In this document: piece after piece, positions 12,676 through 43,380 of the stretch
Layout of the letters: each line of letters begins with the position of its first letter
Numbering within the stretch: position 1 is the first letter of the stretch
From: Eledone cirrhosa
Taxonomy: Eukaryota
Direction: 5' to 3'
NCBI GenBank assembly: GCA_964016885.1
Contig: OZ024745.1
Coordinates: 13,020,001 to 13,084,000 of the forward strand
Length of the DNA: 64,000 bases
Notes under the pieces: generated by a model
What the model saw: the letters and a program-made list of their open reading frames with translations, nothing else
The model's database searches: none
What the model was told of the DNA's origin: nothing
Program-made: the position numbers and the translations under genes

Positions 12676-12725
12676 GCTTCAACAGGACTAGAACTGTTTC
12701 ATACGGAGGAAATCATCAGAAAAGC
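12676..12725 (-). ncRNA. Degenerate type I hammerhead motif
   Basis: Minus strand gctttt-CTGATGA-tttcctccgtat-GAAA-cag..ctg-TT-gaagc; stem III is good, stems I and II are weak. Confidence 0.4.
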
Positions 12726-12988
12726 TGACTGTCAATGTAATATGGTGGTATTTTCTGGTGGTAGGGGAGGGTAGTAAATTGATGCTAAGTAGTCAAACAC
12801 ATACACACTGACAGGCACTCCTAATTTTCAAGATTCATTTATTCTAAAACAAAAGGTTTTCATTGAGTGGCAATATTAAAATGCTCTGCTAAAAGATATA
12901 AATGTGTGTGTATACATATATATATGTGTGTGTTTGTGTATATATATATATGTGTGTGTGTGTTTGTGTATATATATTTGTGTGTGTG

Positions 12989-13021
<33 letters not shown>

Positions 13022-13022
<1 letters not shown>

Positions 13023-14002
13023 CAAATTTCAATAATATTAATACACCCTAATGGGGGTTAAACTCCCTATAGTGAAAAGTTTGGCCAATAAATGGAACAA
13101 GATTTTACGAACTTATCCTCTGGTTTTGGAGATAGACCCCCATAACCATATATATTCTGAAACTACATTGCCCAGGGTACTTGTATAAGTATATTTCATT
13201 TTAATCAAAGGGTTCATCGGGGGCACAAAACCGCCGCTGATACTTTACCTTCGATTTATATGAAATTTAAACCATAGGTAAATGACAAGATATGATGCCT
13301 ATTCACATCATTTCAGCAAATTTCAATAAAATTACAATACCCTAAATCTGAGTTAAACCCTCTATTAGGGTTCACCAGAGGGCACAAAATCCCCGCTGAA
13401 AGTTTTTTCGGTTCGATTTATATGCAATTTAAACCATAGATAAATGAAGAGATATGATGCCTATTCACAAAATTTCAATACTATAAGACACCTTAATACT
13501 ATAAGACTCTATTAGGGTTCCCCGGGGGTACAAACCCCCGCTGAAAACTTCTCCCTTTCATTTTATATGAAACTTAAACCATAGGTAAATGACAAGATAT
13601 GATGCCTATTCACAAAAGTTTCAATTGATATTTTGAAAAAAATTATTTACAAGAAACAAAATAAGAATAAGATTTAATAATGCAATTTTGATTTGATATA
13701 TTACAAAAAAATGATGTTTTCCAATTTTTCATGCATTATATTTTACAGCATAGTTACGTCCCTTTACGATCTGAGTTCAAATCCCGAGGTTGACTTTATT
13801 TTATCGACCCCGTAAGGATGAAAGGCAAAGTACCAGTAATGCACTGGGTAATTGCTGGCCTTGTGCCTAAAGTAGAAACAATTATATTTTACATTGAGTA
13901 ATATTGAGTTTTTCTCCATAAATTATATCACTGATTTAAAATCAATCATTTTCTTACAAAAAAAATGAGTGAAACGCAGCAAGGCGCTGGTAATTCGGCT
14001 AG
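13022..14002 (+). mobile_element. Probable non-autonomous Helitron-like element with internal ~150-bp tandem repeats and a nested SINE
   Basis: Three AAACCATAG.TAAATGA.AAGATATGATGCCTATTCACA-type units; the 3' end has a short GC hairpin (cagc..gctg) followed by CTAG at 13999-14002 and (TA)n. Confidence 0.5.
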
Positions 14003-14044
14003 TATATATATATATGTGAGTGTGTGTATATATATGTGTGTATG

Positions 14045-14700
14045 TGTATGTAGGAGAGGTGTAGGTAGAAACTCCATCCTCCGCCACATATGCAAACTAT
14101 GGATACACAAGAGATGTAGTGGGATCTCAGGAAGTTTAGTTAAGAATGTAGGCTTTACATGTAGCAGTTGGACAAGTGACATCAAAGTCTGGGAGGACTT
14201 GGTAAAAACAATACCGAATTAGCAGCGGAGGGGGTGTTCTGAAAGGATGGGATGGAAGAAGTTGAGGGAGCTACTGCCGCAGCTGGATACAAAAGGCTTT
14301 TCCCTCAGAATAAAAGGTAGACTGTATGATGTGTGCACATGAACGGCAATGTTGCATGGTAGTGAGAGCTGGGTGCTGTGTGTAGAAGACTTGCGTAGAT
14401 TAGAAAGGAATGAAGCTTGTATGCTCCGATGGATGTGTAATAGTAATATACGCGAACAGCAAACCATAAACAAACTGTAAGAGAAACTAGGCATAAGAGG
14501 AATCAAATGTGCAGTAGAGGAGATTATGTTGGTATGGACATGTGATTCGTATGAAGGATGACAGCTACATAAAGTCCCAGAAAGACTTGAGATGAAGTGA
14601 TAAAAGCCGACCTTGCCCAATTGCATCTCTGAAAGGCAATGACACAGGACCAAGATCTCTGGCGTTATGAGGTAATACAGAAACCCCAACTTCCCACAGG
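14045..14700 (+). mobile_element. RTE LINE fragment (family of 57230-62900)
   Basis: CRRGVGRNSILRHICKLWIHKRCSGISG and downstream homology to 62100-62880. Confidence 0.85.
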
Positions 14701-14962
14701 CCAAGGCTGAAACATACATACAGTATGCACCACTCCATCCCACATGCCAATATATCTTTCATGAGAACAGGCCGAAACACTAAAGTGGTCGTGATGGTGA
14801 CACGGTAAAAAACACCCAGTCCACACTGTAAAGTAGTCGTGGAGGAATCACAACAAAAAAAACCCAGTACTCACTGTAAATGAACTTGGCATTAGGAAGG
14901 GCATCCAGCTGTAGAAACCAAGCCAAAATCAGTTCTTTATGAGCAAGACATGGTCACCTGAC

Positions 14963-15294
14963 CGCACATGGCTCAGTGGTTAGAGCATTGGGCTTGCAAT
15001 TGAAAGGTTGTGAGTTTAATTCTCGGACTGAGTGATGTGTTGTTTCCTTGAGCAAGACACTTTATTTCACATTGCTCCAGTTTACTCAGCTGTAGAAATG
15101 AGATGATAGGACTGGGGTCCCTATCATTCCACGGCAAAAAAAAAACAGCCAGCACTCACTGTAAATTAAGTTGGTGTTAGGAAGGGCATCCAGCTGTAGA
15201 AATCAAGACAAGGTCAGCCGACCGGACACTGCCCACAACAGGACAACCCATGCTAGCGTAGAAGAACTGACATAAATGATGATGATGATGATGA
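14963..15294 (+). mobile_element. tRNA-derived SINE, family B (CCTTGAGCAAGACACTT core, GAT tail)
   Basis: A-box TGGCTCAGTGG; other copies at ~15665-16005(-), 42688-42881(-), 42891-43230(+), 54165-54300(+); tail-only pieces at ~43720-43900, 54390-54850 and 62930-63195. Confidence 0.85.
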
Positions 15295-16021
15295 AATATA
15301 ATAGAGTTTTATAGCTTGCTTGAAGCATTGATGAATAGGAAACACAAATTAAAATTTTGAAAACCAAGTTGAGGGCCTTTGAACCCCAGGCTGCTCCTGA
15401 TTCTAGATGTGGAAGACGGGACCTTTGGTACCACACAGTGACGTCCTGTTCGAGAATTGGTCCAGCCCTCAATGCGAAAGTTTGGTCTTAGTCCCGGCAG
15501 GATTTTCCATATGTATATCATTGCGAAGGGTAGAGTTTCAGTTCTTTTAGCCTCTCCCAGTAGCTCATCTCCTTCATTGTGCAATCCTCTTGGTGTAGCT
15601 TCGTTGGATTTTCTCAAGTTCCGTGGTTAGTTTGATACTATGGCGTGACCACAGCTGGGAGCATTCATCATCATTTCATTTTATGTCCACTTTTTCCCTG
15701 CTTGCAAGGGTGGGACGGGAACTGATTCTGGCTTGATTTCTACAGCTGGATGCTGTTCCTAACACCAACCTCATTTACAGTGAGTGCTGGGTGCTTTTTT
15801 CCCCGTGGCAACTCCACATCCACTTTACAGTGTGGGCTGGGTACTTTTTTGTCATGGCACCTCCACGACTGCCAGTCCTATCATCTCATTTCTACAGCTG
15901 AGTAAACTGGAGCAATGTGAAATAAAGTGTCTTGCTCAAGGAAACAACACATCACCCGGTGTGAGAATTGAACTCACAACCTTTCGATTGCAAAGCCAAT
16001 GCTCTCAATATGTACACACAC

Positions 16022-16601
16022 AGTAATAATAATACATATGAAGACTAAAATCCAAAGAGGGCTCGATAGGGATAAATATATATCAAATATATAAGAACCG
16101 TAGAGCAAATATTTATTAAAATAACAGATTAAAGTTTAAGCAAAGAATCGGCTGCTTTCACCCTTAATGGGATCTTCTGAAACTAAAAAAGAAAAAAAAA
16201 AATCAATCTGTGAATGCAGAAGTAAATATTTCGAAAAACGTTGCAACCGAAAGAAGACAGGAAGGCGATACTTTGGTTCGTGGAGACGTAGTTTTAGGTA
16301 TTTCTTCTTGCTTGGTACGGGTATGTTCTTTGTAGAAATATTCAGATGTTTCTGCATTATGAATATAAGTCAATAGAGTACTCAATCAAGGGAGCCAAAT
16401 AGTAATAATAATAAATTTGAAGACATCCAAAGAGGGCTCGATAAGGATAAATATATATCAAATATATAAGAACCGTAGAGCAAATATTTATTAAAATAAC
16501 AAATTAAAGTTTAAGCAAAGAATCGGCTGCTTTCACCCTTAATGGGATCTTCTGAAACTAAAAAAAAAAAAATCAATCTGTGAACGCAGAAGTAAATATT
16601 T
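16022..16601 (-). repeat. Partial tandem repeat (~375-nt period); each copy carries a variant hammerhead
   Basis: 16022-16231 repeats at 16401-16601; hammerhead-like motifs at 16133-16184 and 16508-16559. Confidence 0.8.
16133..16184 (-). ncRNA. Type I hammerhead variant (U4A)
   Basis: agttt-CAGAAGA-tccc attaa gggt-GAAA-gca..tgc-TT-aaact; all three stems pair; identical copy at 16508-16559. Confidence 0.6.
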
Positions 16602-16729
16602 CTAAGCCGAGCTTTCCCAATTGCACCTCTCAAGGGCAATGACACACGACCATGACCTCTGGCGTCACACAGAAAACCCGACTTTCCACAGGAACATATA
16701 GACAATTTTTGTTTTCCTTTGTTGTTTTT

Positions 16730-19700
16730 ATGTCCTATCAACTAATCCGACCTCCAAAATGCTTGCAATTGACTATTATTTTAGCATATTAACAACAAAT
16801 ATGATTTCCACTGCAATTAAAAATGACTAGCTTTGTGAATGGTTTTTCCACCCACTTTCTGCCTTCATTTTTCTACAAAGCTAATCATTGACGATAGGTT
16901 TCAAAGTTATATTCATTCATAATATGTGAAAAAAATAGTCAACTGTGAGCATTGGTGTGATGAAAATGGTAGGAGTAGGTGTTCTGTAATAAATTTACCA
17001 TATAGTGAAGTATGGGGTAGATTAATGTACTGTGGTGTGCTTTGTTATAAGTGAGGATTTAAATTTCCACTTTGATTTATGTTAGAAAAAAAATTTTTCA
17101 TTCATTTTTGCATGCGTTATCAACTTCCAAGAAGCTCGCAGTGGACTATGCTTTTAGCATATTAACAAAAAATATGACTTCCGCTGCAATAAAAAATGAC
17201 TAGCTTTGTAAATGGTATTTCGTCCCACATCCTCCCTCCTTTTTTTACAAAGCTAGTCATTTTCATCAGGTTTCAATGTCATAACCATTGATAATATGTG
17301 CATAAAATAGTAATTTGCGAGCACCTTTTATGTCAAATTGGGTGGTAAGCACAAAAAAAAAAAAAAAAAATGCCAGATGAAAATTTGTCACACCAAAATC
17401 AATATCTTGGTGTGATTTGGTGAAGTTTCTACAAAGATAGTCATTTTCGACAGGTTTCCATGTCATATTTATTGATAAGTGGAAAAAAAAATAGTCAATT
17501 GGGAGCACCTTTAATGTCAGATTGGGTGGTAAGCACACACAAAAAAAAAAAAAAGGAAATGGGAAGAAAATTTTTCACACCAAGATCAATAGCTTGGTGT
17601 GATGTAGTATGGTGTAACTTGGTATGGTGTGGTTTGGTTTGGTGAAGTTATGAAATGGAAACCAATTGTAAACGATAGATTCCCATGTTATATTCATTGA
17701 TAATGTGTGGGAAAATAGTCATTTGCAAGCACCTTTGATGTTAGTTTGAGGTGGTAACCACAAAAAAAAAAAAAAATGCAAGTAGCAAATTTATCACATT
17801 AATGTCCAAGTGATGTAAATGATAGGAGTATGTGTTCTGTAATAAATTACCATATAGTGAAGTATGGTTATGGTGTGGATTGAGGTAGATTAATGTGCTG
17901 TGGTGTGCTTTGTTATAAGTGAGGATTTAAATTTCCACTTTGATTTATGTTAGAAAAAAAATTTTTCATTCATTTTTGCACGTGTTATCAACTTCCAAGA
18001 AGCTCGCAGTGAACTATGCTTTTAGCATATTAACAAAAAATATGACTTCCGCTGCAATAAAAAATGACTAGCTTTGTAAATGGTATTTCCACCCACATCC
18101 TCCCTCTTTTTTCTACAAAGCTAGTCATTTTCATCAGGTTTCCATGTCATAACCATTGATAATATGTGCATAAAATAGTAATTTGCGAGCATCTTTTATG
18201 TCAAATTGGGCGGTAAACACAAAAAAAAAAAAAAAAAAAAAAATGCCAGATGAAAATTTGTCACACCAAAATCAATATCTTGGTGTGATTTGGTGAAGTT
18301 TCTACAAAGATAGTCATTTTCGACAGGTTTCCATGTCATATTTATTGATAAGTGGAAAAAAAAATAGTCAATTGGGTGGTAAGCACACACACAAAAAAAA
18401 AAAAGGAAATGGGAAGAAAATTTTTCACACCAAGATCAATATCTTGGTGTGATTTGGTGAAGTTTCTACAAAGATAGTCATTTTCGACAGGTTTCCATGT
18501 CATATTTATTGATAAGTGGAAAAAAAAATAGTCAATTGGGAGGTAAGCACACACAAAAAAAAAAAAAGGAAACAGGAAAAAAATTTTTCACACCAAGATC
18601 AATAGCTTGGTGTGATGTAGTATGGTGTAACTTGGTATGGTGTGGTTTGGTTTGGTGAAGTTATGAAATGGAAACCAATTGTAAACGATAGATTCCCATG
18701 TCATATTCATTGATAATGTGTGGGAAAATAGTCATTTGCAAGCACCTTTGATGTTAGTTTGAGGTGGTAACCACAAAAAAAAAAAAAATGCAAGTAGCAA
18801 ATTTGTCACATTAATGTCCAAGTGATGTAAATGATAGGAGTATGTGTTCTGTAATAAATTACCATATAGTGAAGTATGGTTATGGTGTGGATTGAGGTAG
18901 ATTAATGTGCTGTGGTGTGCTTTGTTATAAGTGAGGATTTAAATTTCCACTTTGATTTATGTTAGAAAAAAAATTTTTCATTCATTTTTGCACGTGTTAT
19001 CAACTTCCAAGAAGCTCGCAGTGAACTATGCTTTTAGCATATTAACAAAAAATATGACTTCCGCTGCAATAAAAAATGACTAGCTTTGTAAATGGTATTT
19101 CCACCCACATCCTCCCTCTTTTTTCTACAAAGCTAGTCATTTTCATCAGGTTTCCATGTCATAGCCATTGATAATATGTGCATAAAATAGTAATTTGCGA
19201 GCACCTTTTATGTCAAATTGGGTGGTAAGCACAAAAAAAAAAAAAAAAAATGCCAGATGAAAATTTGTCACACCTAAATCAATATCTTGGTGTGATGTAG
19301 TATGGTGTGGTTTGGTGAAGTTTCTACAGGTTTCATTGTCATATTTATTGATAAGTGGAAAAAAAAATAGTCAATTGGGAGCACCTTTAATGTCAGATTG
19401 GGTGGTAAGCACACACACAAAAAAAAAAAAAGGAAATGGGAAGAAAATTTTTCACACCAAGATCAATAGCTTGGTGTGATGTAGTATGGTGAAGTTTCTA
19501 CAAAGATAGTCATTTTCGACAGGTTTCCATGTCATATTTATTGATAAGTGGAAAAAAAAATAGTCAATTGGGAGGTAAGCACACACAAAAAAAAAAAAAG
19601 GAAGTGGTAAGAAAATTTTTCACACCAAGATCAATAGCTTGGTGTGATGTAGTATGGTGTAACTTGGTATGGTGTGGTTTGGTTTGGTGAAATTATGAAA

Positions 19701-22700
19701 TGGAAACCAATTGTAAACGATAGATTCCCATGTCATATTCATTGATAATGTGTGGGAAAATAGTCATTTGCAAGCACCTTTGATGTTAGTTTGAGGTGGT
19801 AACCACAAAAAAAAAAAAAAATGCAAGTAGCAAATTTGTCACAATGTCCAAGTGGTGTAAATGATAGGAGTATGTGTTCTGTAATAAATTACCATATAGT
19901 GAAGTATGGTTATGGTGTGGATTGAGGTAGATTAATGTGCTGTGGTGTGCTTTGTTATAAGTGAGGATTTAAATTTCCACTTTGATTTATGTTAGAAAAA
20001 AAATTTTTCATTCATTTTTGCACGTGTTATCAACTTCCAAGAAGCTCGCAGTGAACTATGCTTTTAGCATATTAACAAAAAATATGACTTCCGCTGCAAT
20101 AAAAAATGACTAGCTTTGTAAATGGTATTTCCACCCACATCCTCCCTCTTTTTTCTACAAAGCTAGTCATTTTCATCAGTTTTCCCTGTCATAACCATTG
20201 ATAATATGTGCATAAAATAGTAATTTGCGAGCATCTTTTATGCCAAATTGGGTGGTAAACACAAAAAAAAAAAAAAAAAATGCCAGATGAAAATTTGTCA
20301 CACCAAAATCAATATCTTGGTGTGATTTGGTGAAGTTTCTACAAAGATAGTCATTTTCGACAGGTTTCCATGTCATATTTATTGATGAGTGGAAAAAAAA
20401 ATAGTCAATTGGGAGGTAAGCACACACAAAAAAAAAAAAAGGAAATGGGAAGAAAATTTTTCACACCAAGATCAATAGCTTGGTGTGATGTAGTATGGTG
20501 TAACTTGGTATGGTGTGGTTTGGTTTGGTGAAGTTATGAAATGGAAACCAATTGTAAACGATAGATTCCCATGTCATATTCATTGATAATGTGTGGGAAA
20601 ATAGTCATTTGCAAGCACCTTTGATGTTAGTTTGAGGTGGTAACCACAAAAAAAAAAAAAATGCAAGTAGTAAATTTATCACATTAATGTCCAAGTGATG
20701 TAAATGATAGGAGTATGTGTTCTGTAATAAATTACCATATAGTGAAGTATGGTTATGGTGTGGATTGAGGTAGATTAATGTGCTGTGGTGTGCTTTGTTA
20801 TAAGTGAGGATTTAAATTTCCACTTTGATTTATGTTAGAAAAAAAATTTTTCATTCATTTTTGCACGTGTTATCAACTTCCAAGAAGCTCGCAGTGAACT
20901 ATGCTTTTAGCATATTAACAAAAAATATGACTTCCGCTGCAATAAAAAATGACTAGCTTTGTAAATGGTATTTCCACCCACATCCTCCCTCTTTTTTCTA
21001 CAAAGCTAGTCATTTTCATCAGTTTTCCCTGTCATAACCATTGATAATATGTGCATAAAATAGTAATTTGCGAGCATCTTTTATGCCAAATTGGGTGGTA
21101 AACACAAAAAAAAAAAAAAAAAATGCCAGATGAAAATTTGTCACACCAAAATCAATATCTTGGTGTGATTTGGTGAAGTTTCTACAAAGATAGTCATTTT
21201 CGACAGGTTTCCATGTCATATTTATTGATAAGTGGAAAAAAAAATAGTCAATTGGGAGGTAAGCACACACAAAAAAAAAAAAAGGAAATGGGAAGAAAAT
21301 TTTTCACACCAAGATCAATAGCTTGGTGTGATGTAGTATGGTGTAACTTGGTATGGTGTGGTTTGGTTTGGTGAAGTTATGAAATGGAAACCAATTGTAA
21401 ACGATAGATTCCCATGTCATATTCATTGATAATGTGTGGGAAAATAGTCATTTGCAAGCACCTTTGATGTTAGTTTGAGGTGGTAACCACAAAAAAAAAA
21501 AAAATGCAAGTAGTAAATTTATCACATTAATGTCCAAGTGATGTAAATGATAGGAGTATGTGTTCTGTAATAAATTACCATATAGTGAAGTATGGTTATG
21601 GTGTGGATTGAGGTAGATTAATGTGCTGTGGTGTGCTTTGTTATAAGTGAGGATTTAAATTTCCACTTTGATTTATGTTAGAAAAAAAATTTTTCATTCA
21701 TTTTTGCACGTGTTATCAACTTCCAAGAAGCTCGCAGTGAACTATGCTTTTAGCATATTAACAAAAAATATGACTTCCGCTGCAATAAAAAATGACTAGC
21801 TTTGTAAATGGTATTTCCACCCACATCCTCCCTCTTTTTTCTACAAAGCTAGTCATTTTCATCAGGTTTCCATGTCATAGCCATTGATAATATGTGCATA
21901 AAATAGTAATTTGCGAGCACCTTTTATGTCAAATTGGGTGGTAAGCACAAAAAAAAAAAAAAAAAATGCCAGATGAAAATTTGTCACACCTAAATCAATA
22001 TCTTGGTGTGATGTAGTATGGTGTGGTTTGGTGAAGTTTCTACAGGTTTCATTGTCATATTTATTGATAAGTGGAAAAAAAAATAGTCAATTGGGAGCAC
22101 CTTTAATGTCAGATTGGGTGGTAAGCACACACACAAAAAAAAAAAAAGGAAATGGGAAGAAAATTTTTCACACCAAGATCAATAGCTTGGTGTGATGTAG
22201 TATGGTGAAGTTTCTACAAAGATAGTCATTTTCGACAGGTTTCCATGTCATATTTATTGATAAGTGGAAAAAAAAATAGTCAATTGGGAGGTAAGCACAC
22301 ACAAAAAAAAAAAAAGGAAGTGGTAAGAAAATTTTTCACACCAAGATCAATAGCTTGGTGTGATGTAGTATGGTGTAACTTGGTATGGTGTGGTTTGGTT
22401 TGGTGAAGTTATGAAATGGAAACCAATTGTAAACGATAGATTCCCATGTCATATTCATTGATAATGTGTGGGAAAATAGTCATTTGCAAGCACCTTTGAT
22501 GTTAGTTTGAGGTGGTAACCACAAAAAAAAAAAAAATGCAAGTAGTAAATTTATCACATTAATGTCCAAGTGATGTAAATGATAGGAGTATGTGTTCTGT
22601 AATAAATTACCATATAGTGAAGTATGGTTATGGTGTGGATTGAGGTAGATTAATGTGCTGTGGTGTGCTTTGTTATAAGTGAGGATTTAAATTTCCACTT

Positions 22701-26170: not shown

Positions 26171-26261
26171 ATCATATAGCGTGTTTCTCTTTAAATTAAA
26201 ATCATTAAAATGTAATGCCTATCTTCTATATCTTAAAGAGTGAGCTTAAATGTGATTGCAA

Positions 26262-30216: not shown

Positions 30217-30429
30217 TCCTCTCTAACTTGAGTGGTGTGATATAGTGTGGTAAAGTATAGTGTTTTGTAGTGTGGTGTTGGATAATGTGGTATGGTTATA
30301 ATGTTTGTCAGTGTGGTGTGGTATGGTATAGGTTGATGTAGTGTGGCTTAGTTTGATTATAATAATTCAAATAATAATAACAATAATAATAGTAATAATA
30401 ATTGTTCTTGTTCATTTTCTTTGTCTTCT

Positions 30430-30545
30430 TCTGTGCCTTTGACTGCTTCTGTGCCTTTGACTGCTTCTGTGCCTTTGACTGCTTCTGTGCCTTTGACTGC
30501 TTCTGTGCCTTTGACTTCTTCTGTGCCTTTGACTTCTTCTGTGCC
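30430..30545. repeat. 18-bp minisatellite (TTCTGTGCCTTTGACTGC), about six copies
   Basis: Read directly from the sequence. Confidence 0.9.
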
Positions 30546-31754: not shown

Positions 31755-32794
31755 TTTTCATGTGCTATCAACTAATCCAATCTCCAAGATGCTTGAAACC
31801 AACTTTCTCCCCCCAGGAAAACGGCGGGGTGAGGTGGTTCCCCCTTCACCCGGATAACCCCTGCTTACTCGGAATTTTCTCTTTGATTCTATTTTCATGC
31901 GTTATCAGTGAATATGACTTCCAAACCAGTCAAAAACAACTAGCTTTGGAGAAAGAGGAGAGGGAGAGGGGAAGAGTTTTGCAGATCTACACCCCACTCA
32001 CATGTTGTGGGACTTAATCATTTTCGGTATATTTCCTGTGCTATTAATTTCCTGTGCTATTTCCTATGCTATTTCCTATGCTATTTCCTATGCTATTTCC
32101 TATGCTATTTCCTGTGCTATTAATTAATCTGACCTCCTAGATGCTTCCAATCAACTTATTTCCCTGGGTTAGGTTTAGGGTGGGGTAATGTTTAGGGTTT
32201 AGTTTTAGGGTTGGGGTAAAGTTTAGGGTTTAGCTTTAGGTTTGGGGTAAAGTTTAGGGTTTAGCTTTAGGTTTGGGGTAAAGTTTAGGGTTTAGTTTTA
32301 GGGTTGGGGTAAAGTTTAGGGTTTAGCTTTAGGTTTGGGGTAAAGTTTAGGGTTTAGTTTTAGGGTTGGGGTAATGTTTAGGGTTTAGTTTTATGGTTGG
32401 GGTAATGTTTAGGGTTTAGATTTAGTTTGGTTTGGTTTAGATTTAGGGTTGGGGCTAGATTTAATTTTATGTTTAATTTAGTTTCCAAATCCCAGAAAAA
32501 AAAAATTGATTCAGAGCAACTAAAAGGTCAGATTAGTTGATAGCACTGAAAAGGAGACCGAAGAAAAATCATTAGGGTATATATCTACAAAACGACAATG
32601 GCTTTTCCACCTGCTTTACCCCTCCTTTTTCCTAGAACAACTAATCATTTCCAACTGGTTTGGAGGTCATATTCGTTGATAACATGAGAAAACTCTGGGG
32701 TTAAATGAGAGAAGTGCATCCACCTAAGTTTTCCATGAAGAGAGAGTCAATAACAAACATCTTGGAGTTCGGATTAGTTGATAACACATGAAAA
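31755..32794. mobile_element. ~1-kb foldback/MITE with a telomere-like (TTTAGGG/TTAGG) core
   Basis: Nested imperfect inverted repeats, e.g. 32114-32168 vs 32491-32546 and 31755-31790 vs 32760-32794; G-rich ~29-bp repeats at 32165-32460; flanked by GTGTG/GTGTA microsatellites. Confidence 0.75.
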
Positions 32795-33276
32795 AAAGAT
32801 GAGGAAAAAATTTTGGGTGTTATGTGGTGTGTGTGGAGTGGTGTGTTGTGGTGTGTTTTTATGTGGAGTGGAGTAGTGTGGTGTGTTGTGGTGTGTTTTT
32901 ATGTGGAGTGGAGTAGTGTGGTGTAGTGTTGTATTATTTTTATGGGGTGTGGTGTGATGTGGTGCGGTGCACTGTGGTGTTGTGCAGTGTGGTGTTGTGC
33001 AGTGCGGTGTTGTGCAGTGCGGTGCAGTGAGGTTCTTCATCTTTATCTTCATCTTTGTATTCATCTTTGTATTCATCTTTGTATTCATCTTTGTATTCAT
33101 CTTCTTTGTTTTGTCTTCCATCTAAACAAACAAAAATATATATATAAAACATATGTAGCCAATCTCTCAGACTTTTACAACTTTGTCTGATTTACTCGTT
33201 TTATTTACAATCCATTAAAATTATAATGGTATTAGAATGAAATAGTATGGTAGAATATTAAGTGTTAAGTGTTAAT

Positions 33277-33315
33277 TGAACAAGTAATTTCATGCTTTCG
33301 CAATCTTCAGGTTCA
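33277..33315 (-). ncRNA. Type I hammerhead (inverted pLTR copy, one stem III substitution)
   Basis: tgaac-CTGAAGA-ttgc gaaa gcat-GAAA-ttac-TT-gttca. Confidence 0.65.
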
Positions 33316-33621
33316 TATTCTGTGGTGACAGTCAAGTTTACAATTTTCAACTGTAATGAGATGGGTAAATTTTGTGCCTTATATACAGTGAAAAGCGGCT
33401 ACATGTGTAGTTTCACTGGATTACTGAAGCTGATTGGTTTAGGCATCACGGTTGGTTGGGCATGTCTAACGACTTCTATTTAGCATCTATTCAAAGCATC
33501 AATTGTTTTGCTATTTTTAGAAATGATGAAAATAGCATTTTCTAGGGTTTTATACCCCTAAGAATTATTATTGTTCATTTAGTTTGGGTTGGAATTTTGA
33601 AAAATATTCCCAAATGCAAAT

Positions 33622-33912
33622 ATGAACTGCAAAAGCAGAAATCTAATTTACTGCATTAAATGCCCGAATTGTGAAGAACTATATGTCGGTCAAACTGGAA
33701 ATGCACTATCGGAACGTGCACGGGTGCACCGACAGCAAATCAGAGACCCAAATGTCCGTCAGATACCCCTGAGTAACCATCTAGCAGCATGTGGTCAGAA
33801 AATATTTATATTTCCATTCTACAAATTACACAGGCCAAGTGAAATCAAGAGAAAAATCACAGAAAAGAATTTTATTGATAAATTCCAACCCAAGCTAAAT
33901 GAACAATTATAA
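33622..33912 (+). CDS. Penelope-type GIY-YIG endonuclease domain (C-terminal remnant)
   Basis: NLIYCIKCPNCEELYVGQT..L..R..H..H..E..I...PKLN motifs. Confidence 0.85.
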   Translation: MNCKSRNLIYCIKCPNCEELYVGQTGNALSERARVHRQQIRDPNVRQIPLSNHLAACGQKIFIFPFYKLHRPSEIKRKITEKNFIDKFQPKLNEQL

Positions 33913-34161
33913 TTCTTAGGGGTATAAAAACCCTAGAAAATGCTATTTACATCATTTCTAAAAATAGCAAAACAATTGATGCTTTGGATAGAGCCAAATA
34001 GAAGTCGTTAGACATGCTCAACCAACCATGACGCCTAAACCAATCAGCTTCAGTAATCCAGTGAAACTACACATGTAGCCGCTTTTCTCTGTATATAAGG
34101 CACAAAATTTACCCATCTCATTACAGTTGAAAATTGCAAACTTGACTGTCACCACAGAATA

Positions 34162-34200
34162 TGAACCTGAAGATTGCGAAAGCATGAAAGTACTTGTTCA
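34162..34200 (+). ncRNA. Minimal type I hammerhead ribozyme
   Basis: Stem I tgaac/gttca, CTGAAGA, stem II tgc-GAAA-gca, GAAA, palindromic stem III A-gtac-T, cleavage triplet CUU. Confidence 0.8.
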
Positions 34201-35120
34201 ATTAACACTTAACACTTAATATTCTAACATACTATTCAGATTACATCTATATATATATACACATGCATATATATATACATACATACATACACATATACAT
34301 ATATACAAATACATATATACATGCATATATATATATATACATATACAATATGTATAGGATTCCTTTCCCTTTGAGCACATAATTTACAGGGAATAACGCG
34401 ACTCTATGGCTCCGTTAATTTATCTTCATATATACATATATATACATACACACACACATATATATACATACACACATATGCATACACACACATGCATACA
34501 CACATATATACATACACACACATATACATACACACACATATACATACACACATATATACATACACACACATATATATAGATTCATACATACATACACACA
34601 CACATATATATATATATGTATAAAGTACTTGACGATGAGCATTCTAGTTGTTCAATAAACTGATTGAATAATACAAACGATGTTTTAATATACAGATTCA
34701 TTATTTGCGTATATATAATATATTTACAGTAGAATAACAGCAAATATGTTTTAAATATATACATAAATAATTACCAATGCTTAAAAAACATTATAAATTG
34801 CTCGCGATTCTTTCAGAAGGATATATTCCTTTAATGTTGCAATATTAAAGAAAATATACGTCTATATATACATACATATATTTATTCAACTAAGGAAAGT
34901 TGGTTGATTGAAAATTTGCCGACTCTTTCATAAGTTTAATATCAACAGTTTATGTTTATCCGGAGTTTTATTATAATAATTGTTTCTACTTTGGCACAAG
35001 GCCAGCAATTACCCAGTGTATTACTGCTACTTTATTTTATCGACCCCATAAGGATGAAAGGCAAAGTTAACCTCGGTGGATTATAATAATAAACAAGAAA
35101 GACGGTATCATTTGCCCATT

Positions 35121-35253
35121 TCATTTGTATAACATCTGCCCTACGTGTTCTCATATCAATGGATATCAACGAATATCTCATATCAACGGATATTTACATC
35201 TTGCATGGATTTTTTGTCGGAAGAAAACACGTAAGGCAGATATTATACAAATG
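35121..35253. mobile_element. Small MITE-like inverted repeat (~29-bp arms)
   Basis: TCATTTGTATAACATCTGCCCTACGTGTT ... AACACGTAAGGCAGATATTATACAAATGA. Confidence 0.6.
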
Positions 35254-35285
35254 ACATATGTCTTCGAAATAAGTATAATAAAATA

Positions 35286-35346
<61 letters not shown>

Positions 35347-35465
35347 AGGTGAGTTTTATTGTAGTACAATAAAGAGCAATGCAGATATCGGATAAGTACC
35401 ACTCTACAGTTTGTAGGACTGGAGTATAAATAATAAGGTCAAAAGATGGTTAAAAGAGTTCCATG

Positions 35466-35533
35466 TATTTTATTATGCGCATTTCAAAAACAAATATCAT
35501 GCGATGACATTTGCGTTTTCGTCAGATAAAATA
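35466..35533 (-). ncRNA. Type I hammerhead ribozyme
   Basis: tattttat-CTGACGA-stem II-GAAA-tgcgca-TA-ataaaata on the minus strand. Confidence 0.82.
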
Positions 35534-36274
35534 GGGAGACATGATATGAAGGTTAAAAAACACTTGTGAATAGTGCAGTTTTAAATCAACTTATGAAAAG
35601 TAATTCAAGATTGATATGTGATATTGGGAAAAAAATGAGGGTGGGTGGGTGGGGTGGAAAGGATGAAAAAGAGGAGGAGATGAGAGTAAAGAATGGAGGG
35701 GGAGGAGTATAATAAGGAAGGATGAGATAGGAGGAGAGATGGGTGATAGAAAGAGAGAGATAGCCTTTATAACTGAGAAAAATATATTGTTTTACTGAGA
35801 GAGGTTAAAAAGCCGTTGGAAGATAATATATAAATTAAAAGAATTTGAAAATTAATGAAAAGAAAAAAATTAAGAATAATGTTAAATTAAGGTTTGTATA
35901 TTGAAGAGTTTAATAATATGTGCGATGAAAAGAAATTGTTAATATATATTAAGAATAATGTTAAATTAAGGTTTGTATATTGAAGGGTTTAATAATGTGT
36001 TAAACCTTAATTTAACATTATTCTTAATATATATTAACAATTTCTTTTCATCGCACATATTATTAAACCCTTCAATATACAAACCTTAATTTAACATTAT
36101 TCTTAATTTTTTCTTTTCATTAATTTTCAAATTCTTTTAATTTATATATTATCTTCCAACGGCTTTTTAACCTCTCTCTCTCTGTAAAACAATATATTTT
36201 TCTCAGTTATAAAAGCTATCTCTCTCTCTCTATCACCCATCTCTCCTATCTCATCCTTCCTTATTATACTCCTC

Positions 36275-37659
36275 CAGTGGCGGATTTAACAGGTGGTGAA
36301 GGTGGAAAATGCCGACTGGGCCCCTGCCGACTGGGCGCTTGCAAAAAAAAAAAATTGTAATTTGGGCGATATCCAAAAATACCTCCCCCATGCCTAGGGC
36401 TAAATAACTTCGCTGTTCGCTGCTGATATGAGGCTAAATAACTTCGCTGCTGGCTGCTGAAATGAGGCTATTCCAACAAATTTACATTCCCTTTTTTTTA
36501 GCCGTTAAAAGAAATATAGATTTATTTATTTATTTGAAACGTTTTTGTTAGTTTCATTGTTTTGTTTTTTTGGCGATAATTTTGTTAGTTTCTTGTTGTT
36601 TTTTTTTAGTTTCTTTTTGATTTATTCCTTGTGACAGTGCTTTGAACGTTCAACAGATAAATTGGAAGAACTCAGATGCGATCACAAATTTGAACAATTT
36701 GTGGACCAGACAAAGAAAGCCTGGAATGACGTGGGATTTGATGCATCTGAAACTAATTTTAAAATAACACGAGTAAGGAGAAGAAAGATTATGGATGGTG
36801 AAGTTTGTGGTGTTGAAAGACTAGCTACTGCTTCAGATAGATATCGCACTGCAATTTATTTTCAATCACTGGATAGTATGATTGGGGAGATGAGAGCCCG
36901 AACTGAAGGAATAAAAAAAATATCTTCAATCTTTGGATTTTTTAGTCCAAATCGACTGGCTAAATGCTCAGATGATGAACTAAAAACACATGTAGCAACA
37001 TTGGTAGATAACTTTCCAAATGAATTCACACTGGAACTCAGAAATGAACTCTTTTCTTTCATTGGCCTCTACTTTTCACAGCCAAACGCAGCTTTAAAAC
37101 AAAGTGGGGTTATGCCATATCTGAAATTTTTACTGAACAATGACTTGTGTGATGTCTTTCCCGAGTTTGAAATTCTGGTAAGGTTATTTCTCACTTTACC
37201 AATTGGCATAGCAAGTGCGGAACGCTCTTTCAGTGTTCTACGAAGAATTAAAAATTATCTTCGTTCAACGATGGGCCAGGAGAGGCTATCCAGTTTTGCC
37301 CTGCTGGCAATTGAAAACAAAATTACTAAATCAGTAAACTTGGACCACGCTATAACTCATTTTTCAACTGTTAAAGCTCGCAGAGGTCTGCGCATGTAAA
37401 AGCAATTTGTGTAAAAGACTAACATATATACAACTTTATTACTTTATTATTTGTTTACAGTACAGCACATCTGTTTGTTTGTTTCAAATAAAGTATACTT
37501 GTAATTTAATTGTCTTCTTAATGATTATTGGTAGCTAAATGGGAAATAAAAAAAAAAACTTTTTCAATACTCGCTCGAAAAGATGGTACTTTAATTTTCA
37601 CTCTGGGACCTCCTTACTGACCAATGCCGACTGGGCCCTATTCCTTAAATCCGCCACTG
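36275..37659 (+). mobile_element. Internally deleted hAT DNA transposon
   Basis: 15-bp TIR CAGTGGCGGATTTAA, perfect 8-bp TSD TACTCCTC (36267-36274 and 37660-37667), subterminal TGCCGACTGGGC repeats. Confidence 0.96.
36662..37399 (+). CDS. C-terminal part of a hAT transposase (dimerisation domain)
   Basis: FPEFEILVRLFLTLPIGIASAERSFSVLRRIKNYLRSTMGQERLS motif; polypyrimidine tract plus AG upstream (~36638) and AATAAA downstream suggest a terminal exon. Confidence 0.85.
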   Translation: MEELRCDHKFEQFVDQTKKAWNDVGFDASETNFKITRVRRRKIMDGEVCGVERLATASDRYRTAIYFQSLDSMIGEMRARTEGIKKISSIFGFFSPNRLAKCSDDELKTHVATLVDNFPNEFTLELRNELFSFIGLYFSQPNAALKQSGVMPYLKFLLNNDLCDVFPEFEILVRLFLTLPIGIASAERSFSVLRRIKNYLRSTMGQERLSSFALLAIENKITKSVNLDHAITHFSTVKARRGLRM

Positions 37660-37826
37660 TACTCCTCCCCCACCATTCTTTACTTTCATCTCCTCTTTTT
37701 CATCCTTTCCACCCCCCCCCCTCATTTTTGCCCCAATATCACATATCAATCTTAAATTACTTTTCATATGTTGATTTAAAACTGCACTATTCATAAGTGT
37801 TTTTTAACCTTCATATCATGTCTCCC

Positions 37827-37897
37827 TATTTTATCTGACGAAAACGCAAATGTCATCGCATGATGATATTTGTTTTTGAAATGCGCATAATAAAATA
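37827..37897 (+). ncRNA. Type I hammerhead ribozyme
   Basis: 8-bp stem I tattttat/ataaaata, CTGACGA, long stem II, GAAA, palindromic stem III A-tgcgca-T, cleavage triplet AUA. Confidence 0.85.
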
Positions 37898-38245
37898 CAT
37901 GGAACCCTTTTAACCACCTTTTGATCTTATATTATATATATACATATACATACATAGTAATAATAATTGTTTCTACTTTAGGCACAAGGCCAGCAATTAC
38001 CCAGTGCATTACTGAATAATAATAATATTTATACTTATATATGATTATAAATATGGATGGTAGTACTAAGTACTAGCCGGAAGGAGAAAAGGCTCAATGT
38101 AAATTTTCAAATGTATTACAGAAGTTTAATACATTTAATTGGTGATAATTTTTTTTTTACATACATACATACATACATATATATATACAATATATTAATA
38201 AATGGAAACTATATTTATCATGGGCCACCGCTTTCATCAGATAAA

Positions 38246-38302
<57 letters not shown>

Positions 38303-38422
38303 AAACTTAATTATTCGTGTAACGTTTTTAATAATTATTTGATATTACTTACCGTTTTCTTATCTTTTGATTTACTGTTTCTTCATTTCTCCTGCGTTTG
38401 TTGAAATTCCCGCTATTCTCTG

Positions 38423-38738
38423 GAGAAAAATTGCGCCAAACGTTTCCTTTTGAAAGAATAATGTGATTTGTCACGAGATATTACCTCTAAATATGTGTAT
38501 ACGTATACACATTACCTCTAAATATGTGTATACGTATATACGTATACACATTACCTCTAAATATGTGTATACGTATATACGTATACACATTACCTCTAAA
38601 TATGTGTATACGTATATACGTATACACATTACCTCTAAACATGTGTATACGTATATACGTATACACATATTTAGAAGTACTATCACGTGACAAATCACAT
38701 TATTCTTTCAAAAGGAAAAGTTTGGCGCCATTTTTCTC
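38423..38738. mobile_element. Palindromic MITE with an amplified 39-bp centre
   Basis: ~58-bp inverted arms (38423-38481 vs 38681-38738); full-length internal units contain the perfect palindrome TGTGTATACGTATATACGTATACACA. Confidence 0.8.
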
Positions 38739-38835
38739 GTATATACGTATTTTTTCATTGTAAGTTCGGAAAAATGATAAATTGGAATAATTCTAAAATC
38801 GGGAAAATTTTTTATATCACTCAAATGATGTTATT

Positions 38836-38940
38836 GCATTAAGCATCCTTTTCACACTTCCAGTATCGATGGAAAATGGTGAGAGTAGTTTCTCAAAGCT
38901 GAAGCTTATAAAATTTTACATTCACTCTACAATGTTGCAA
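38836..38940 (+). pseudogene. Relic of a second hAT dimerisation domain
   Basis: Translates to ALSILFTLPVSMENGESSFSKLKLIKFYIHSTMLQ. Confidence 0.65.
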
Positions 38941-39290
38941 GGGAGTTTTGTTGACTTGCATTTTTAACGATAATAAACCGATTATTAATCATTGAAAGAC
39001 TCAAAATAATAATACTATGGAATATTTTTACTGAGTCCGGTTAAGAGTATACTATTTTCCATTCCCGAGGGTATACTCTTAAGCAGACTCGACTGTACCT
39101 GCGGGGCTAGACCGAGGGGGCGGGGAAAAGTCGGGTCCCATCACAATATTCCCGTTCCATGATAGTAAGGCCCCTTCACCTGAGAGGCAAAGGTAAAACC
39201 TGCAACGATACATTTTCTCAAACAAGAACCTGGTTAATTTCGTGCTCGACAAGTCTGTTATCATAATTCAATACACATCAGCAACCAACA

Positions 39291-39342
<52 letters not shown>

Positions 39343-40047
39343 CCCTGTTGTATATCAATACTAGCTGCTTCCTACCTCTTTATCAGATAAATATTTTTTT
39401 TTACAAGCTGTTTTTTAGTCTGTTTATAGATTCTGCATGGGATTACGTTATTGTTGTTGTTTAGCCCTAGGTCAACCTTGACTAAACCACAGAATTCCAT
39501 TATGATCAACGGTATTCCAGCCACGACCATCCCGTCGTTTTAGGTGTATCTAATACGTACATTATCAGACATCGTGTTCTTTCTTAATATTTTTTTTAAG
39601 GTGGGTGGAAAGAATTGGCTGTTATTTCTAGCAAACTGAGTGCCCACATAGTATGTGTATATGGGGGAGGGGTATGTTAAAGTAAGGGAGTACAAGTGTT
39701 TGTGAAACATTTAACCATTTACATTATAAATTCAAATGTGTGGGTACTTCTTGGTGATCGAACGAAAGGAACCGATACGAGATCCATTGATTCTGTATAA
39801 GCCTATCAGAGGTTCATCGATATACCAACCATTGGTAAATATTCTCCTCACGAAGGGCGAGAGTGGCGATCGCAAACATATATACATATACACACAAACA
39901 CATACACACCACATATATATATATATACGCAGAAACACACACATACAATAACGACTAGTACTACGATTCTGGAGGAGCGAATGATGGAGAAGATGAAGCT
40001 CTCTGTCGCAGAATAAATGGTATTTAATTTTAATAATAATACTAATA

Positions 40048-40115
<68 letters not shown>

Positions 40116-40629
40116 TTCTCAATTGAATTGATTATCATTATCGTTTTTATGGCAAAAGATAGACAGAGAGGGAAAGAGATAGATAGAGGGAAAGATTTTG
40201 ACATATATATATATATATATGTATTTTGTTTTTTTATATATATATATATGATAGAAAGAAGAGAAAAAAACGAAACCCTTAGAAACGAATAAGAGTCATC
40301 AAAGCGATCATATGTATTGCTTTAAACTGTAATGCGAAGGGATACACTAGTATTTGAAGTACCATCATTTGGGATTTTAACCCTCGGACTTTCCCCTCCT
40401 GGTTTTGAAATTTAGGGAAAATTTAGGGGTGACTGGGAATATTACATAATGTAGGGATTTTCTTTTCCTTTTCTATCATTTCTTATTTATGTATTTATAT
40501 ATTTATTTATCTACTCTCGTGATTGATATTCCGACAAATGTTAGGGGTGTATTTTGGTTTTTTATTATGTCAGGTATAGCATCCAAAAATTTCTCCCTTC
40601 CCCCAATATATATATATATATATATACAA

Positions 40630-40706
40630 ACAGTGTCCCAAAAAATGTATACACACTTCAACAGCAAAGTAATCAAAGTGTGTATATATTTTTGAGGGGA
40701 CACCGT
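40630..40706. mobile_element. Tiny Tc1/mariner-like TIR remnant
   Basis: GTGTCCCAAAAAATGTATACACAC ... GTGTGTATATATTTTTGAGGGGACAC within a TA microsatellite. Confidence 0.55.
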
Positions 40707-41454
40707 GTGTATATATATATATATGTGTGTGTGTATGTGTAACTAGTAAAACTGTTAAAACGCAGCGGTATATTCTAATTTGGCCCTTTTAAGGGCCACC
40801 TATATTTTCATTTAAGTAACTCCACTTACATCTATATGCTTTAATTAAAAAAATAATAAAAAAACGCGTGAAAATTTTTTTTTTATTTAAGTAACTCCAC
40901 TTACGCGTGGTAGTAATACGGAAATAAACGCTGTTTTGCTTTCATCGGCTGCTTCAACTGACAGCTAATAGCGTTGTAGTGCCAAGAAACTTGTTGATAC
41001 TTTATAAAACAAATGAAATAGTAAAATATTATTATGCAGTGGAGTTTTGAAACAATCAAAATATTAAAACATCATAGAAATACTCTCGTGGGAAGTTACG
41101 AAACCACATCTAAACATCATCATCATCATATGTTAACTGCCACGGCTTGTATAATATATATATATATATATATAATTGTCTCTACTTTAGGCACAAGGCC
41201 AGCAATTACCCAGTGCATTACTGGTACTTTATTTTATCGACCCCGTAAGGATGAAAGGCAAAGTCAACCTCGGCGGGATTTGAACTCAGATCGTAAAGGG
41301 ACGTAACAATGAAAGCTATACCCATTTTCACAAGAGAAGGCATCTCTCACCTGACGGACGGGCAGAGTTTACAGGTCTGCCCTTCATAGAAAGCATCACA
41401 CACACATACATACACATGTTGGTGACTCAATAGAGCCAAGTCATCCACTCCATT

Positions 41455-41499
41455 ACATGGCTGAAGATTCTCAGCTACTGAGCAAACATCGTTTCATGT
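41455..41499 (+). ncRNA. Degenerate hammerhead-like motif (G12C)
   Basis: acatgg-CTGAAGA-tt ctcag cta ctgag-CAAA-catcg-TT-tcatgt; stems I and II pair, GAAA is mutated. Confidence 0.45.
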
Positions 41500-42012
41500 C
41501 ATGCTGCCCTTTCTCTTGTCACACAGTAAAGCTGCAATACTCAAATTTCAATATGCTTCAGACGTGGATAGCTGGCAACAGATATAATGACCCAACAGAG
41601 CTCTCTATGACGACAACCCTTATACGGGAGACGTTTGTACAAGGACGAGATTCGACGTTTGATCCCATTGTATGTCACTTTAGATCAGAGGTTCTCAAAC
41701 TTTTGGGGCCACCTCCCCACTCACGGCCCCATTATACCCTCAGCGCCCCCACCCCTATTTCCGGAGAGACTTGCTAACACGAAAATTATAAATGATACAT
41801 AATAGATAAAATCATTAATTTATATATGGATTGGCAGTATCGGTAGAGGGTTTGACGCCATGCTTTGCAGCAAAGAGTTACGGCCCTTTATGGTCTGAGT
41901 TCAAATCCCGCCGAGGTTAACTTTGCCTTTCATCCTTACAGGGTCGGTAAAATAAAGTACCAGTAATACACTGAGATAATTGCTGGCCTTATGCCAAAAG
42001 TAGAAACAATTA

Positions 42013-42685
42013 ATTTATGGAAGCTGAACATGTCCCTACCGGCAAGTAAAGCTTACAGGAACCGGATTAGTACGTTAGTTAAGGAGTGGTTGACTGAAGC
42101 GATCGTCAACAGCAGGTGGTGGGTATCTCTAAAGAGAGAGATTAGATTAGTCTCGATAGAATTTAGTAAGGTTTTAGCTGCGGATAGGAATAGGAAGGAA
42201 AGGGAGCTGATAGACAGAGTAGAAGAGGCAATTAGAAGCGGCGACGTGGCCTCAGAACGGCTTTGAACCAGTTTTTCGACGCGAAGCACAAAGGCTGCGT
42301 TTTCCGAAGTAAAATACGTGCTCTAGGAAACGAGGGGACCAAAGCTGTTAGCTGGGCCCGCGTGACAGAAGCCAAGAGTGGAATTAAATCCACCATCCGG
42401 TCTTTGCGAGACCAGGATGGACGAGCGATCCTTGAACCTAAGCAGATGTGTGAGGCCTTTCAAAGGCACTTTGCCCGATTGTTCAAAAAGGGCGGGGAGC
42501 TGGTTGGGGAAGTGGACTTCGGTCCATACCTCGACGGCCTGCCGCGTCTTTCGGACGAGGAGGCGAAGTCCTGTGAGGAACCGATTTCAGCCGCTGAGAT
42601 AGAGGCTGTGCTGAGCCAATGCGGCAAACGCAAATCCCCGGTCTCGATGGTCTTCCATACGAACTATATCTAGCTATGCCGGACT
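42013..42685 (+). mobile_element. L1/Tx1-clade LINE ORF2 fragment
   Basis: WKLNMSL, WWVSLKREIR and PGLDGLPYELY motifs; frameshifted. Confidence 0.8.
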
Positions 42686-43306
42686 TGTTGCCCTTCCTAA
42701 CACCAACCTCATTTGCAGAGAGTGCTGGGTGCTTTTTTGGCGTGGCACCTCCACGACCACTTTGCAGTGGAATGATAGGGACCCCAGTCCCTATCATCTC
42801 ATTTCTTCAGCTGAGTAAACTGGAGCAATGTGAAATAAAGTGTCTTGCTCAAGGAAACAACACATCACCACGTCTGAGAATTTTTCATGGAGGCACATGG
42901 CTTAGTGGTTAGAGCATTGGCCTTGCAATAGAAAGGTTGTGAGTTCAATTCTCAGACCGGGTGATGTGTTGTTTCCTTGAGCAAGACACTTTATTTCACA
43001 TTGCTCCAGTTTACTCAGCTGAAGAAATGAGATGATAGGGATTGGGGTCCCTATCATTCCACTGCAAAGTGGTCATGGAGGTGCCACGGCAAAAAAGCAG
43101 CCAGCACTCACAGAAAATGAGGTTGGTGTTAGGAAGGGCATCCAGCTGTAGAAATCAAGCCAGAATCAGTTCCCGTCCCACCCTTGCAAGCAGGGAAAAG
43201 CGAACGTAAAATGAAATGATGATGATGAAATGATATATATATATATATATATATAGAATAAGTAAAAGCGAAGTAGTTTCAGATGTTCAAGTCCTTTAAT
43301 AATAAT

Positions 43307-43380
43307 GGTGTGATATATATTTCAATGACGACACTGGCCACACTGTTCTGTGTGCGAGTGTCGTGACATCATCAGACAGC
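43307..43380 (-). ncRNA. Type I hammerhead with long stem II
   Basis: gctgt-CTGATGA-tgtc acgacact..cacac/gtgtg..agtgtcgt catt-GAAA-tatata-TC-acacc; one mismatch in stem I. Confidence 0.7.

Follow-up and report, generated by a model that had tools for sequence, protein, structure and literature searches.

Hammerhead-like motifs of Penelope-like terminal repeats, most of them nested within a giant Merlin transposon of Eledone cirrhosa

Why should a single stretch of 64,000 nucleotides contain nine hammerhead ribozyme motifs? The question is raised by a locus of Eledone cirrhosa (G000:C5:13,020,001-13,084,000, in a genome of 3.0 Gb and 1,796 contigs), hereafter called the window, for which a preliminary description had reported such a cluster. 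The answer that very probably applies is that eight of the nine motifs are hammerheads of the terminal repeats of Penelope-like elements (PLEs), belonging to four coding families and one non-coding family. They are truncated remnants, seven of the reported motifs being nested in one giant Merlin DNA transposon, of elements whose active parents would likely use the motif to cut a tandem transcript. The copies in the window are themselves most likely inert.

Hammerheads in the terminal repeats of Penelope-like elements

Eight of the nine reported coordinates each correspond to the lowest-numbered position of a motif resembling a type I hammerhead, while the ninth, 41455(+), lacks the GAAA box. 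The core C3 U4 G5 A6 N7 G8 A9 ... G12 A13 A14 A15.1 ... U16.1 H17 is present in families A, B, C and F, in agreement with the CUGANGA core that had been described. The motifs of family D at 16133 and 16508 read CAGAAGA, which had gone unstated. Three stems with an open stem I occur in family-typical copies of A, B, C, D and F, and stem II has an extra U...U base in A, D and F. The palindromic form of stem III that had been noticed in three families is indeed there, except that the family A copy at 33277(-) has lost the palindrome. Compared to their own families, three window copies are damaged, namely 33277 (stem III), 43307 (stem I) and 12676 (stem II); the stem I of 43307 reads ACACC, versus ACAGC in 100 of 109 matches among fetched loci. 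Instead of six unrelated families there are five, three of which are of the Hydra type. Also present, though overlooked before, is a copy of another family, G, at 38240(-) that carries an internal deletion.

The density of these motifs was compared with that in local dinucleotide shuffles, using a strict and a relaxed hammerhead descriptor that were both composed after the motifs had been seen. The strict descriptor finds 5 motifs in the window versus a mean of 0.01 (0/200 shuffles as high) and the relaxed one finds 7 versus 0.4 (0/100 as high), so that this control, which had been suggested beforehand, comes out far below the window. One relaxed match, 36969(+), falls inside the open reading frame (ORF) of a hAT element and is taken as chance. 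Genome-wide, exact-pattern matches (reversed patterns gave 0) number 6,117 for A, 17,660 for B, 945 for C, 26,119 for D and 7,605 for F, the F pattern being the 3′ half. Together these are 58,446 matches in 3.0 Gb, by which approximately 1.25 motifs are expected per 64 kb, versus eight in the window. Fetched genome copies, given L numbers below, amount to 392 loci and 1.6 Mb, with a bias toward these repeats. In this census, around 40 hammerhead motif sets have unrelated stems, a common core and a stem III that is mostly self-complementary.

The proposed link with Penelope elements holds, as four families adjoin PLE frames for reverse transcriptase (RT) or GIY-YIG endonuclease (EN). An RT with a C-terminal GIY-YIG EN lies beside the repeat in A, B and D, and is assigned to F by similarity to D only. 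Full-length elements carry the motif at both ends with a spacing of 3.3-4.2 kb. Copies of the five families for the most part stop at a short, constant distance 3′ of the predicted cut and are followed by (TA)n. The 5′-inverted copies, the partial tandem or inverted arrangement of the pseudo-long terminal repeats (pLTRs) and the (TA)n targets that characterize EN-containing PLEs were all observed. Since the eight motifs are located in pLTRs, a chance origin is refuted for them.

The families differ in what surrounds the motif (Table 1). In family A, the two motifs lie in an inverted pLTR pair flanking a GIY-YIG fragment, which is directly upstream of the (+) pLTR and is 95% identical to the EN in L210. 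Longer copies (L209/L210) have an RT with DKG and a CX4CX2C linker. These features, together with a CCHH-type EN (L209/L210, P0001), follow the Neptune/Nematis pattern of DKG and a CX2-5CxxC linker, and on this sequence basis A is classified as a Neptune/Nematis-type PLE, taken as one class. Family B is an inverted pLTR pair interrupted by a hAT element; other B copies lie 1.2 kb downstream of an EN that has CxxC/CxH motifs and the CxCX5C linker of Hydra. This Hydra linker (CxCX5C, no CCHH, CxxC and CxH around E and N) was found in both B and D. In family F, one motif lies upstream of a Hydra-like ORF in L436 that is 38-47% identical to D, and the Hydra type of F is taken from this similarity. 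Family C is a non-coding unit of 1,297 bp, arranged head to tail in arrays that reach 4+6 units and include inversions, and it has no similarity to 9 PLE protein fragments of the same genome. The possibility that it is the 3′ untranslated region (UTR) of a Neptune-like ORF (L351) was rejected, since that ORF has its own repeat and sits between two inverted C copies. The repeat around 41455, family E, has CTGAAGA and a hairpin, and among 20 copies examined a single one has GAAA within 40 nt; it could be a long-decayed hammerhead or chance. It is an older dispersed repeat (122 candidates, 77-98% identity) in which CTGANGA and the hairpin are conserved and no 3′ core is present.

Table 1. Positions of the repeats, motifs and transposons discussed in the text, in window coordinates.
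Feature	Position	Strand	Remarks
Giant non-autonomous Merlin DNA transposon	7189..40983		33.8 kb; 24-bp terminal inverted repeats starting GG; seven of the nine motifs lie within it
Family F hammerhead, Hydra-type pLTR end	12676..12725	-	Element about 12649-12753; stem II broken
Family D partial tandem	16022..16605	-	373-bp unit; internal-deletion derivative of Hydra-type PLE
Family D hammerhead 1	16133..16184	-	CAGAAGA (A4); closed stem III; predicted cut after 16138
Family D hammerhead 2, second tandem copy	16508..16559	-	Predicted cut after 16513
Family A inverted 5′-truncated pLTR	33175..33609	-	Hammerhead 33277-33315; stem III ATTACT, non-palindromic
Family A GIY-YIG endonuclease C-terminal fragment	33601..33912	+	103 aa; PF01541, E 3.3e-07
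Family A pLTR	33867..34236	+	Hammerhead 34162-34200 of minimal type; stem III is the palindrome AGTACT; predicted cut after 34195
Family B (Hydra-type) inverted pLTR	35342..36000	-	Hammerhead 35466-35533; palindromic ATGCGCAT
hAT element within family B pLTR	36275..37659	+	1.4 kb; 8-bp target site duplication; transposase C-terminal fragment 36635-37399 (PF05699)
Family B pLTR, 3′ part	37660..37956	+	Hammerhead 37827-37897; predicted cut after 37889
Family G hammerhead, internally deleted	38180..38248	-	Without 3′ core
Family E repeat around 41455 motif	41308..41600	+	Not a hammerhead
Family C, 5′-truncated copy of non-coding 1.3-kb tandem unit	43233..43724	-	Hammerhead 43307-43380; outside Merlin

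Position 4 of the core in families D and H

The uridine U4 of the U-turn is absent from family D, which is filed as a variant and not as a canonical type I member. A complete arrangement is seen in L201, where an ORF with DKT, RWR and CxCX5C lies between two hammerheads spaced by 3,259 bp; in the window, the first approximately 28 ORF codons are joined to the 3′ UTR. In 143 contigs, D ends in (AT)n 29 nt 3′ of the predicted cut. With stem I as anchor, A4 is found in 21,869 of 22,122 copies, and the bases in the other 253 are spread over G, T and C, as expected of decay following insertion. At this position no variant is seen at 5% in run X1, in which 15,660 contigs were placed. Copies of D that read CTGAAGA were considered as an ancestral form and rejected, as the inspected ones arise at fold-back junctions and non-A bases are this rare. 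The A4 core is likely to slow or abolish cleavage, judging from the sequence. Editing of adenosine to inosine yields inosine at position 4, not uridine, and therefore would not restore the D core.

A second case is family H, a Hydra-type family from outside the window (L393-L404, L439, L442), with the core CCGAAGA, a 4.2-kb unit and an open frame of 815 aa. Of its 5,179 matches, the first 100 include 99 with C4, and divergent H relatives retain both C4 and a self-complementary stem III. The Hydra DKT and an RWK-like motif can be read in D as well as in H. Both families keep G5, A6, G8, A9, G12, A13, A14, A15.1-U16.1 and a non-G H17. In a tree of 13 RT segments, all copies from this genome, H falls together with B and others (85/99), and D is separate. 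A single event giving rise to both A4 and C4 was rejected on this tree, which has moderate support and a long outgroup.

Belief and doubt are about evenly balanced for a further, bolder reading. It states that two Hydra-clade PLE lineages independently lost the U-turn uridine (A4 in more than 22,000 copies, C4 in more than 5,000) with all other catalytic bases and the three stems kept, meaning that either a U-turn is dispensable for cleavage or it is the fold, as opposed to the cut, that PLEs require. It further states that Merlins of 25-48 kb spread PLE remnants as cargo carriers. A more specific explanation, tentative and clearly less probable, is that the fold is kept as a landmark, for RT binding or for fixing the 3′ end in target-primed reverse transcription, and that catalysis is dispensable at least in the non-U4 Hydra families. 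The prevalence of A4 in D, the most abundant family counted, and that of C4 in a family with a long open frame both fit such a role. So do the low activity of every single mutant in the CUGA of a type III hammerhead (PMC9901934) and the continued proliferation of Naiads without hammerheads (PMC8557442). However, the other catalytic bases are kept in D and H, including the divergent H relatives, as expected were the chemistry needed, and a natural U4C variant of a viroid, weak in vitro, keeps sufficient activity in vivo (PMC3088659). Family D could serve as a natural experiment, as it has spread with a core change that is predicted to cripple catalysis, beside canonical sister families that can serve as controls. 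If U-turn-less cores cleave, or if only the fold is needed, this bears on what PLE hammerheads do.

An improbable origin of A4 lies in splicing. The D core in L201 (3400-3430) coincides in part with a sequence resembling a 3′ splice acceptor (a pyrimidine tract followed by CAG), with GT donors upstream in the UTR, such that splicing would rebuild another or a canonical core. In the Penelope of Drosophila virilis, an intron end indeed maps to helix I (PMC4209133). Yet for three candidate junctions no spliced genomic D copy was found, and three matches in one search fit neither junction. This absence is weak evidence, because PLE copies usually retain introns. Splicing moreover leaves the C4 of family H unexplained.

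Many D and F insertions (L190-L194, L200, L242-L246, L425-L432) take the form of tiny fold-backs, with the point of inversion at the hammerhead core or immediately ahead of it, which suggests that the RT stalls or switches template at the D/F hammerhead structure.

The giant Merlin transposon and the apparent cluster

The clustering of the motifs is explained by nesting. Besides the ends listed in Table 1, the Merlin element of the window has a third, inverted copy of its terminal inverted repeat (TIR) at 7579-7602 and an 8-bp target site duplication (TSD) at 7181-7188 and 40984-40991. The TIR has 389 exact matches genome-wide, which at 2-3 per element amounts to roughly 130-190 elements. No transposase match was found in the window copy. 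Other copies (L276, L297) have an ORF with PF12762 (DDE_Tnp_IS1595; E 5.4e-18) 450-550 bp inside the same terminus. The window element is classed as a non-autonomous derivative. Among 13 TIR pairings elsewhere, 5 of the 7 outer ones have an exact 8-bp TSD (spans of 26.5-48.2 kb), versus 0 of the 6 inner ones. Of the two remaining outer pairings, one (25.6 kb) is located within a run of TA and one is the second candidate partner of an already matched end. Three distant 60-kb regions (on C1, C2 and C4) are collinear with the window from 7 to 35 kb at 75-98% identity. A plain segmental duplication or a CACTA element was excluded as the nature of the 34-kb unit by the differing flanks, the 8-bp TSD and the GG termini. 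Annotation by short consensus sequences would fragment a repeat of 25-48 kb such as this one.

The nested cargo comprises long and short interspersed nuclear elements (LINEs and SINEs), PLEs and hAT elements, and it varies between copies: D and B are missing from the one at C1 5.55 Mb, an intact A from the one at C1 72.24 Mb. Flanks common to the window were seen at 20 of 21 dispersed D loci and at 9 of 30 pattern-picked F loci. The D flanks concerned are Merlin-internal ones of best matches and, of 30 D loci picked by pattern, 0 have a short tandem, by which D was rejected as an independent 373-nt retrozyme. The preliminary description had envisaged retrozyme-like dependants, and cleavage as dimers for hammerheads with a short palindromic stem III. 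The sole tandem pair, 16133/16508, does not qualify as an independent retrozyme family: it has a closed stem III, is a deletion product and has spread mainly with Merlin. Cleavage as a dimer in cis is inapplicable to the two inverted pairs, as the members of each lie on opposite strands and therefore form no dimer within one transcript.

Other repeats occupy the Merlin element as well. From 16957 to 26030 there is a tandem array of 0.84-1.03 kb units, each with CTGATGA and no hammerhead topology, whose copy number varies between copies. Degenerate 6/12/24-bp repeats follow at 26300-32500, with a 31-bp array containing TTAGGG-like words at 32169-32425. One Merlin copy (L359, 900-5300) has a 4.2-kb insertion resembling a long terminal repeat retrotransposon. 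Two Rfam matches to the Histone3 stem-loop at 7426-7470 and 40777-40821, at a gathering score of 34 bits, both lie within the Merlin ends. They are likely false positives, no histone gene having been seen near them.

Families C and E are located outside Merlin. Copies of the entire locus, parts beyond Merlin included, occur at C5 12.47, 12.65, 12.82 and 13.03 Mb, on C211 (4 copies) and at C3 260.65 Mb, with 99-100% identity and a spacing of about 160-210 kb. These extra copies are recent segmental duplications or assembly redundancy. The eight motifs in 64 kb are real, although the cluster is only apparent, since it comes down to five insertions, with seven of the reported motifs nested in a giant Merlin, plus segmental duplication. 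It is very improbable that the window is a functional ribozyme cluster, with one long transcript cut by several hammerheads or with hammerheads used by Merlin. The excess over the expected density and the recurrence of the same cargo in many Merlin copies would agree with it. However, the families were picked for occurring in the window, the strands are mixed, three motifs are damaged and one is deleted, and the cargo is not constant. That AT-rich repeat DNA produced the motifs by chance, which is true of 41455, probably of 36969, and in keeping with the silence of Rfam, is hardly credible for the remainder given the shuffles, the fixed position in PLE terminal repeats and the common core of some 40 motif sets with unrelated stems.

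For the hammerheads of PLE terminal repeats, the following course of events is proposed, with cleavage, dimer formation, monomer folding and mobilisation in trans all drawn from the literature. Parent elements would be transcribed from tandem copies, the hammerhead would cut once per unit, and the unit-length RNA thus released would serve for reverse transcription, after which the PLE RT/EN would copy the cleaved product into (TA)n sites; such a model of cleaved tandem transcripts and RT/EN copying has been described (PMC4209133), as has dimer cleavage (PMC6765202). The palindromic stem III may lead to dimer formation in A, B and C, and monomer folding may suffice in D and F; the only tandem pair, that of D, has a closed stem III. 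Family C would be mobilised by a PLE enzyme in trans, non-LTR retrozymes having been described as PLE dependants (PMC7229834; bioRxiv 10.64898/2026.07.22.740005). At this locus, PLEs would have inserted at (TA)n sites of a Merlin that had lost its transposase gene. A related Merlin transposase would then have moved the 25-48 kb unit, and the locus would later have been segmentally duplicated.

Several results weigh against this reading. An Rfam search of the window, a covariance-model check that had been suggested beforehand, gave 0 hammerhead families among 89 matches at E<=5; as it missed all eight motifs, Rfam-based annotation undercounts such hammerheads. The hammerhead fold of the D monomer (-5.5 kcal/mol) loses to an alternative (-8.8). 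The divergence within families A-D, which are young, is too small to show selection on the core. In run X1, the D sites varying in >=10% of depth were 8 outside the motif and 0 inside, which is weak evidence. Cleavage by PLE hammerheads in vitro is low (PMC4209133), and 8 of 9 dimers of Xenopus retrozymes failed to cleave (bioRxiv 10.64898/2026.07.22.740005). A coding partner for family C was not found. Stem covariation, another suggested check, has a divided outcome. In the related family G, 94.1% of 391 stem II cells are paired, with 26 double changes, in 23 distinct motifs picked by core and stem I and not by stem II. Slid registers pair 39-57% and 0 of 500 shuffles are as high, a control that is inflated by relatedness. 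RNAalifold on the same alignment favoured a different helix, and in family H (9 motifs) the covariation was matched or exceeded by 164 of 500 shuffles.

Further repeats are present in the window, where arrays of C2H2 zinc fingers together with RTE LINEs and (TA)n tracts would fit an octopus genome. A 49-bp satellite of about 90 copies spans 1-4436, with an inversion at 1399/1400, and extends to the left beyond the window. A 339-aa frame at 48372-49391 (-) has approximately 10 C2H2 zinc fingers in 84-bp repeats, and decayed arrays are present at 44236-44592 and 47655-48382. Fragments of RTE-type and CR1/L2-type LINEs, labelled from reading translations, are located at 9628-10665, 50988-53843 and 57946-64000. 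The microRNA matches of Rfam in the window are TA-repeat hairpins and were rejected.

Comparison with known systems

Hammerheads in PLE repeats, with many families per invertebrate genome, are ordinary and published. The ribozyme-based retroelement system that had been expected to escape annotation is present, in the form of coding PLE families plus a non-coding tandem unit, but it is an already described one and not hidden. PLE hammerheads with many families per genome and inverted pairs have been reported (PMC4209133), and their function has been called unclear (PMC8557442). They share with those described here a type I topology in pLTRs, a palindromic or short stem III, an additional base at the foot of stem II, pairs in inverted orientation separated by 100-900 bp and tandem copies spaced by about 3 kb. 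The difference lies in the core, where the variant reported is U3-A8 and not A4 or C4 (PMC4209133). Octopus was not found in the searchable part of the supplement of that paper. A U4A PLE hammerhead was found neither in the literature searched nor in the searchable part of these supplements; the study of PLE hammerhead variants by Lunse et al. (2017) may hold such cases.

The Hydra clade with hammerheads, which includes Hydra-1_Obim of Octopus bimaculoides (PMC8557442, File S2), is similar to the Hydra-type families in DKT, RW[K/R], the CxCX5C linker and CxxC/CxH around E and N (Craig et al., 2021), as well as in its (TA)n targets, a hammerhead near the 3′ end and U...U at stem II. However, the motifs in File S2 all read CTGA, versus CAGA in D and CCGA in H. 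Hydra-1_Obim was curated from few copies, whereas B, D, F and H differ from it in sequence and have thousands. When the accessible supplement of PMC8557442 was searched for four motif strings taken from A, B and D, 0 matches were obtained. Family A agrees with Neptune/Nematis PLEs in DKG, the CX2-5CxxC linker and a GIY-YIG at the C terminus in which the core has two cysteines. Like non-LTR retrozymes, family C consists of non-coding head-to-tail units that each have a type I hammerhead. Its unit is larger, at 1,297 bp versus about 170-400 nt and 51-972 bp in retrozyme papers, and it differs as well in its minimal, not canonical, ribozyme and in its PLE-style 5′ inversions. From these sequence features, C is classified as retrozyme-like only.

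An annotation of O. vulgaris records 31 PLE families with recent activity along with 2 small Merlin families, and ribozymes are not mentioned in its accessible part (PMC13282606). A giant Merlin was not found in the literature searched, which consists mostly of listings besides PMC8101967 and PMC13282606. The element of the window has the characteristics of Merlin transposons, namely a TIR of at least 24 bp starting GG, a TSD of 8 bp (8-9 bp by definition), internal tandem repeats and, in related copies, a DDE_Tnp_IS1595 transposase (PMC8101967). It differs from them in size and content, as these elements measure 25.6-48.2 kb and have nested cargo, versus a mean of 2.6 kb for recently active Merlin in O. 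vulgaris (11 insertions, 28,998 bp; PMC13282606). Compared to what is known, the fixed non-U4 cores and this Merlin carrier of 25-48 kb are the parts worth following.

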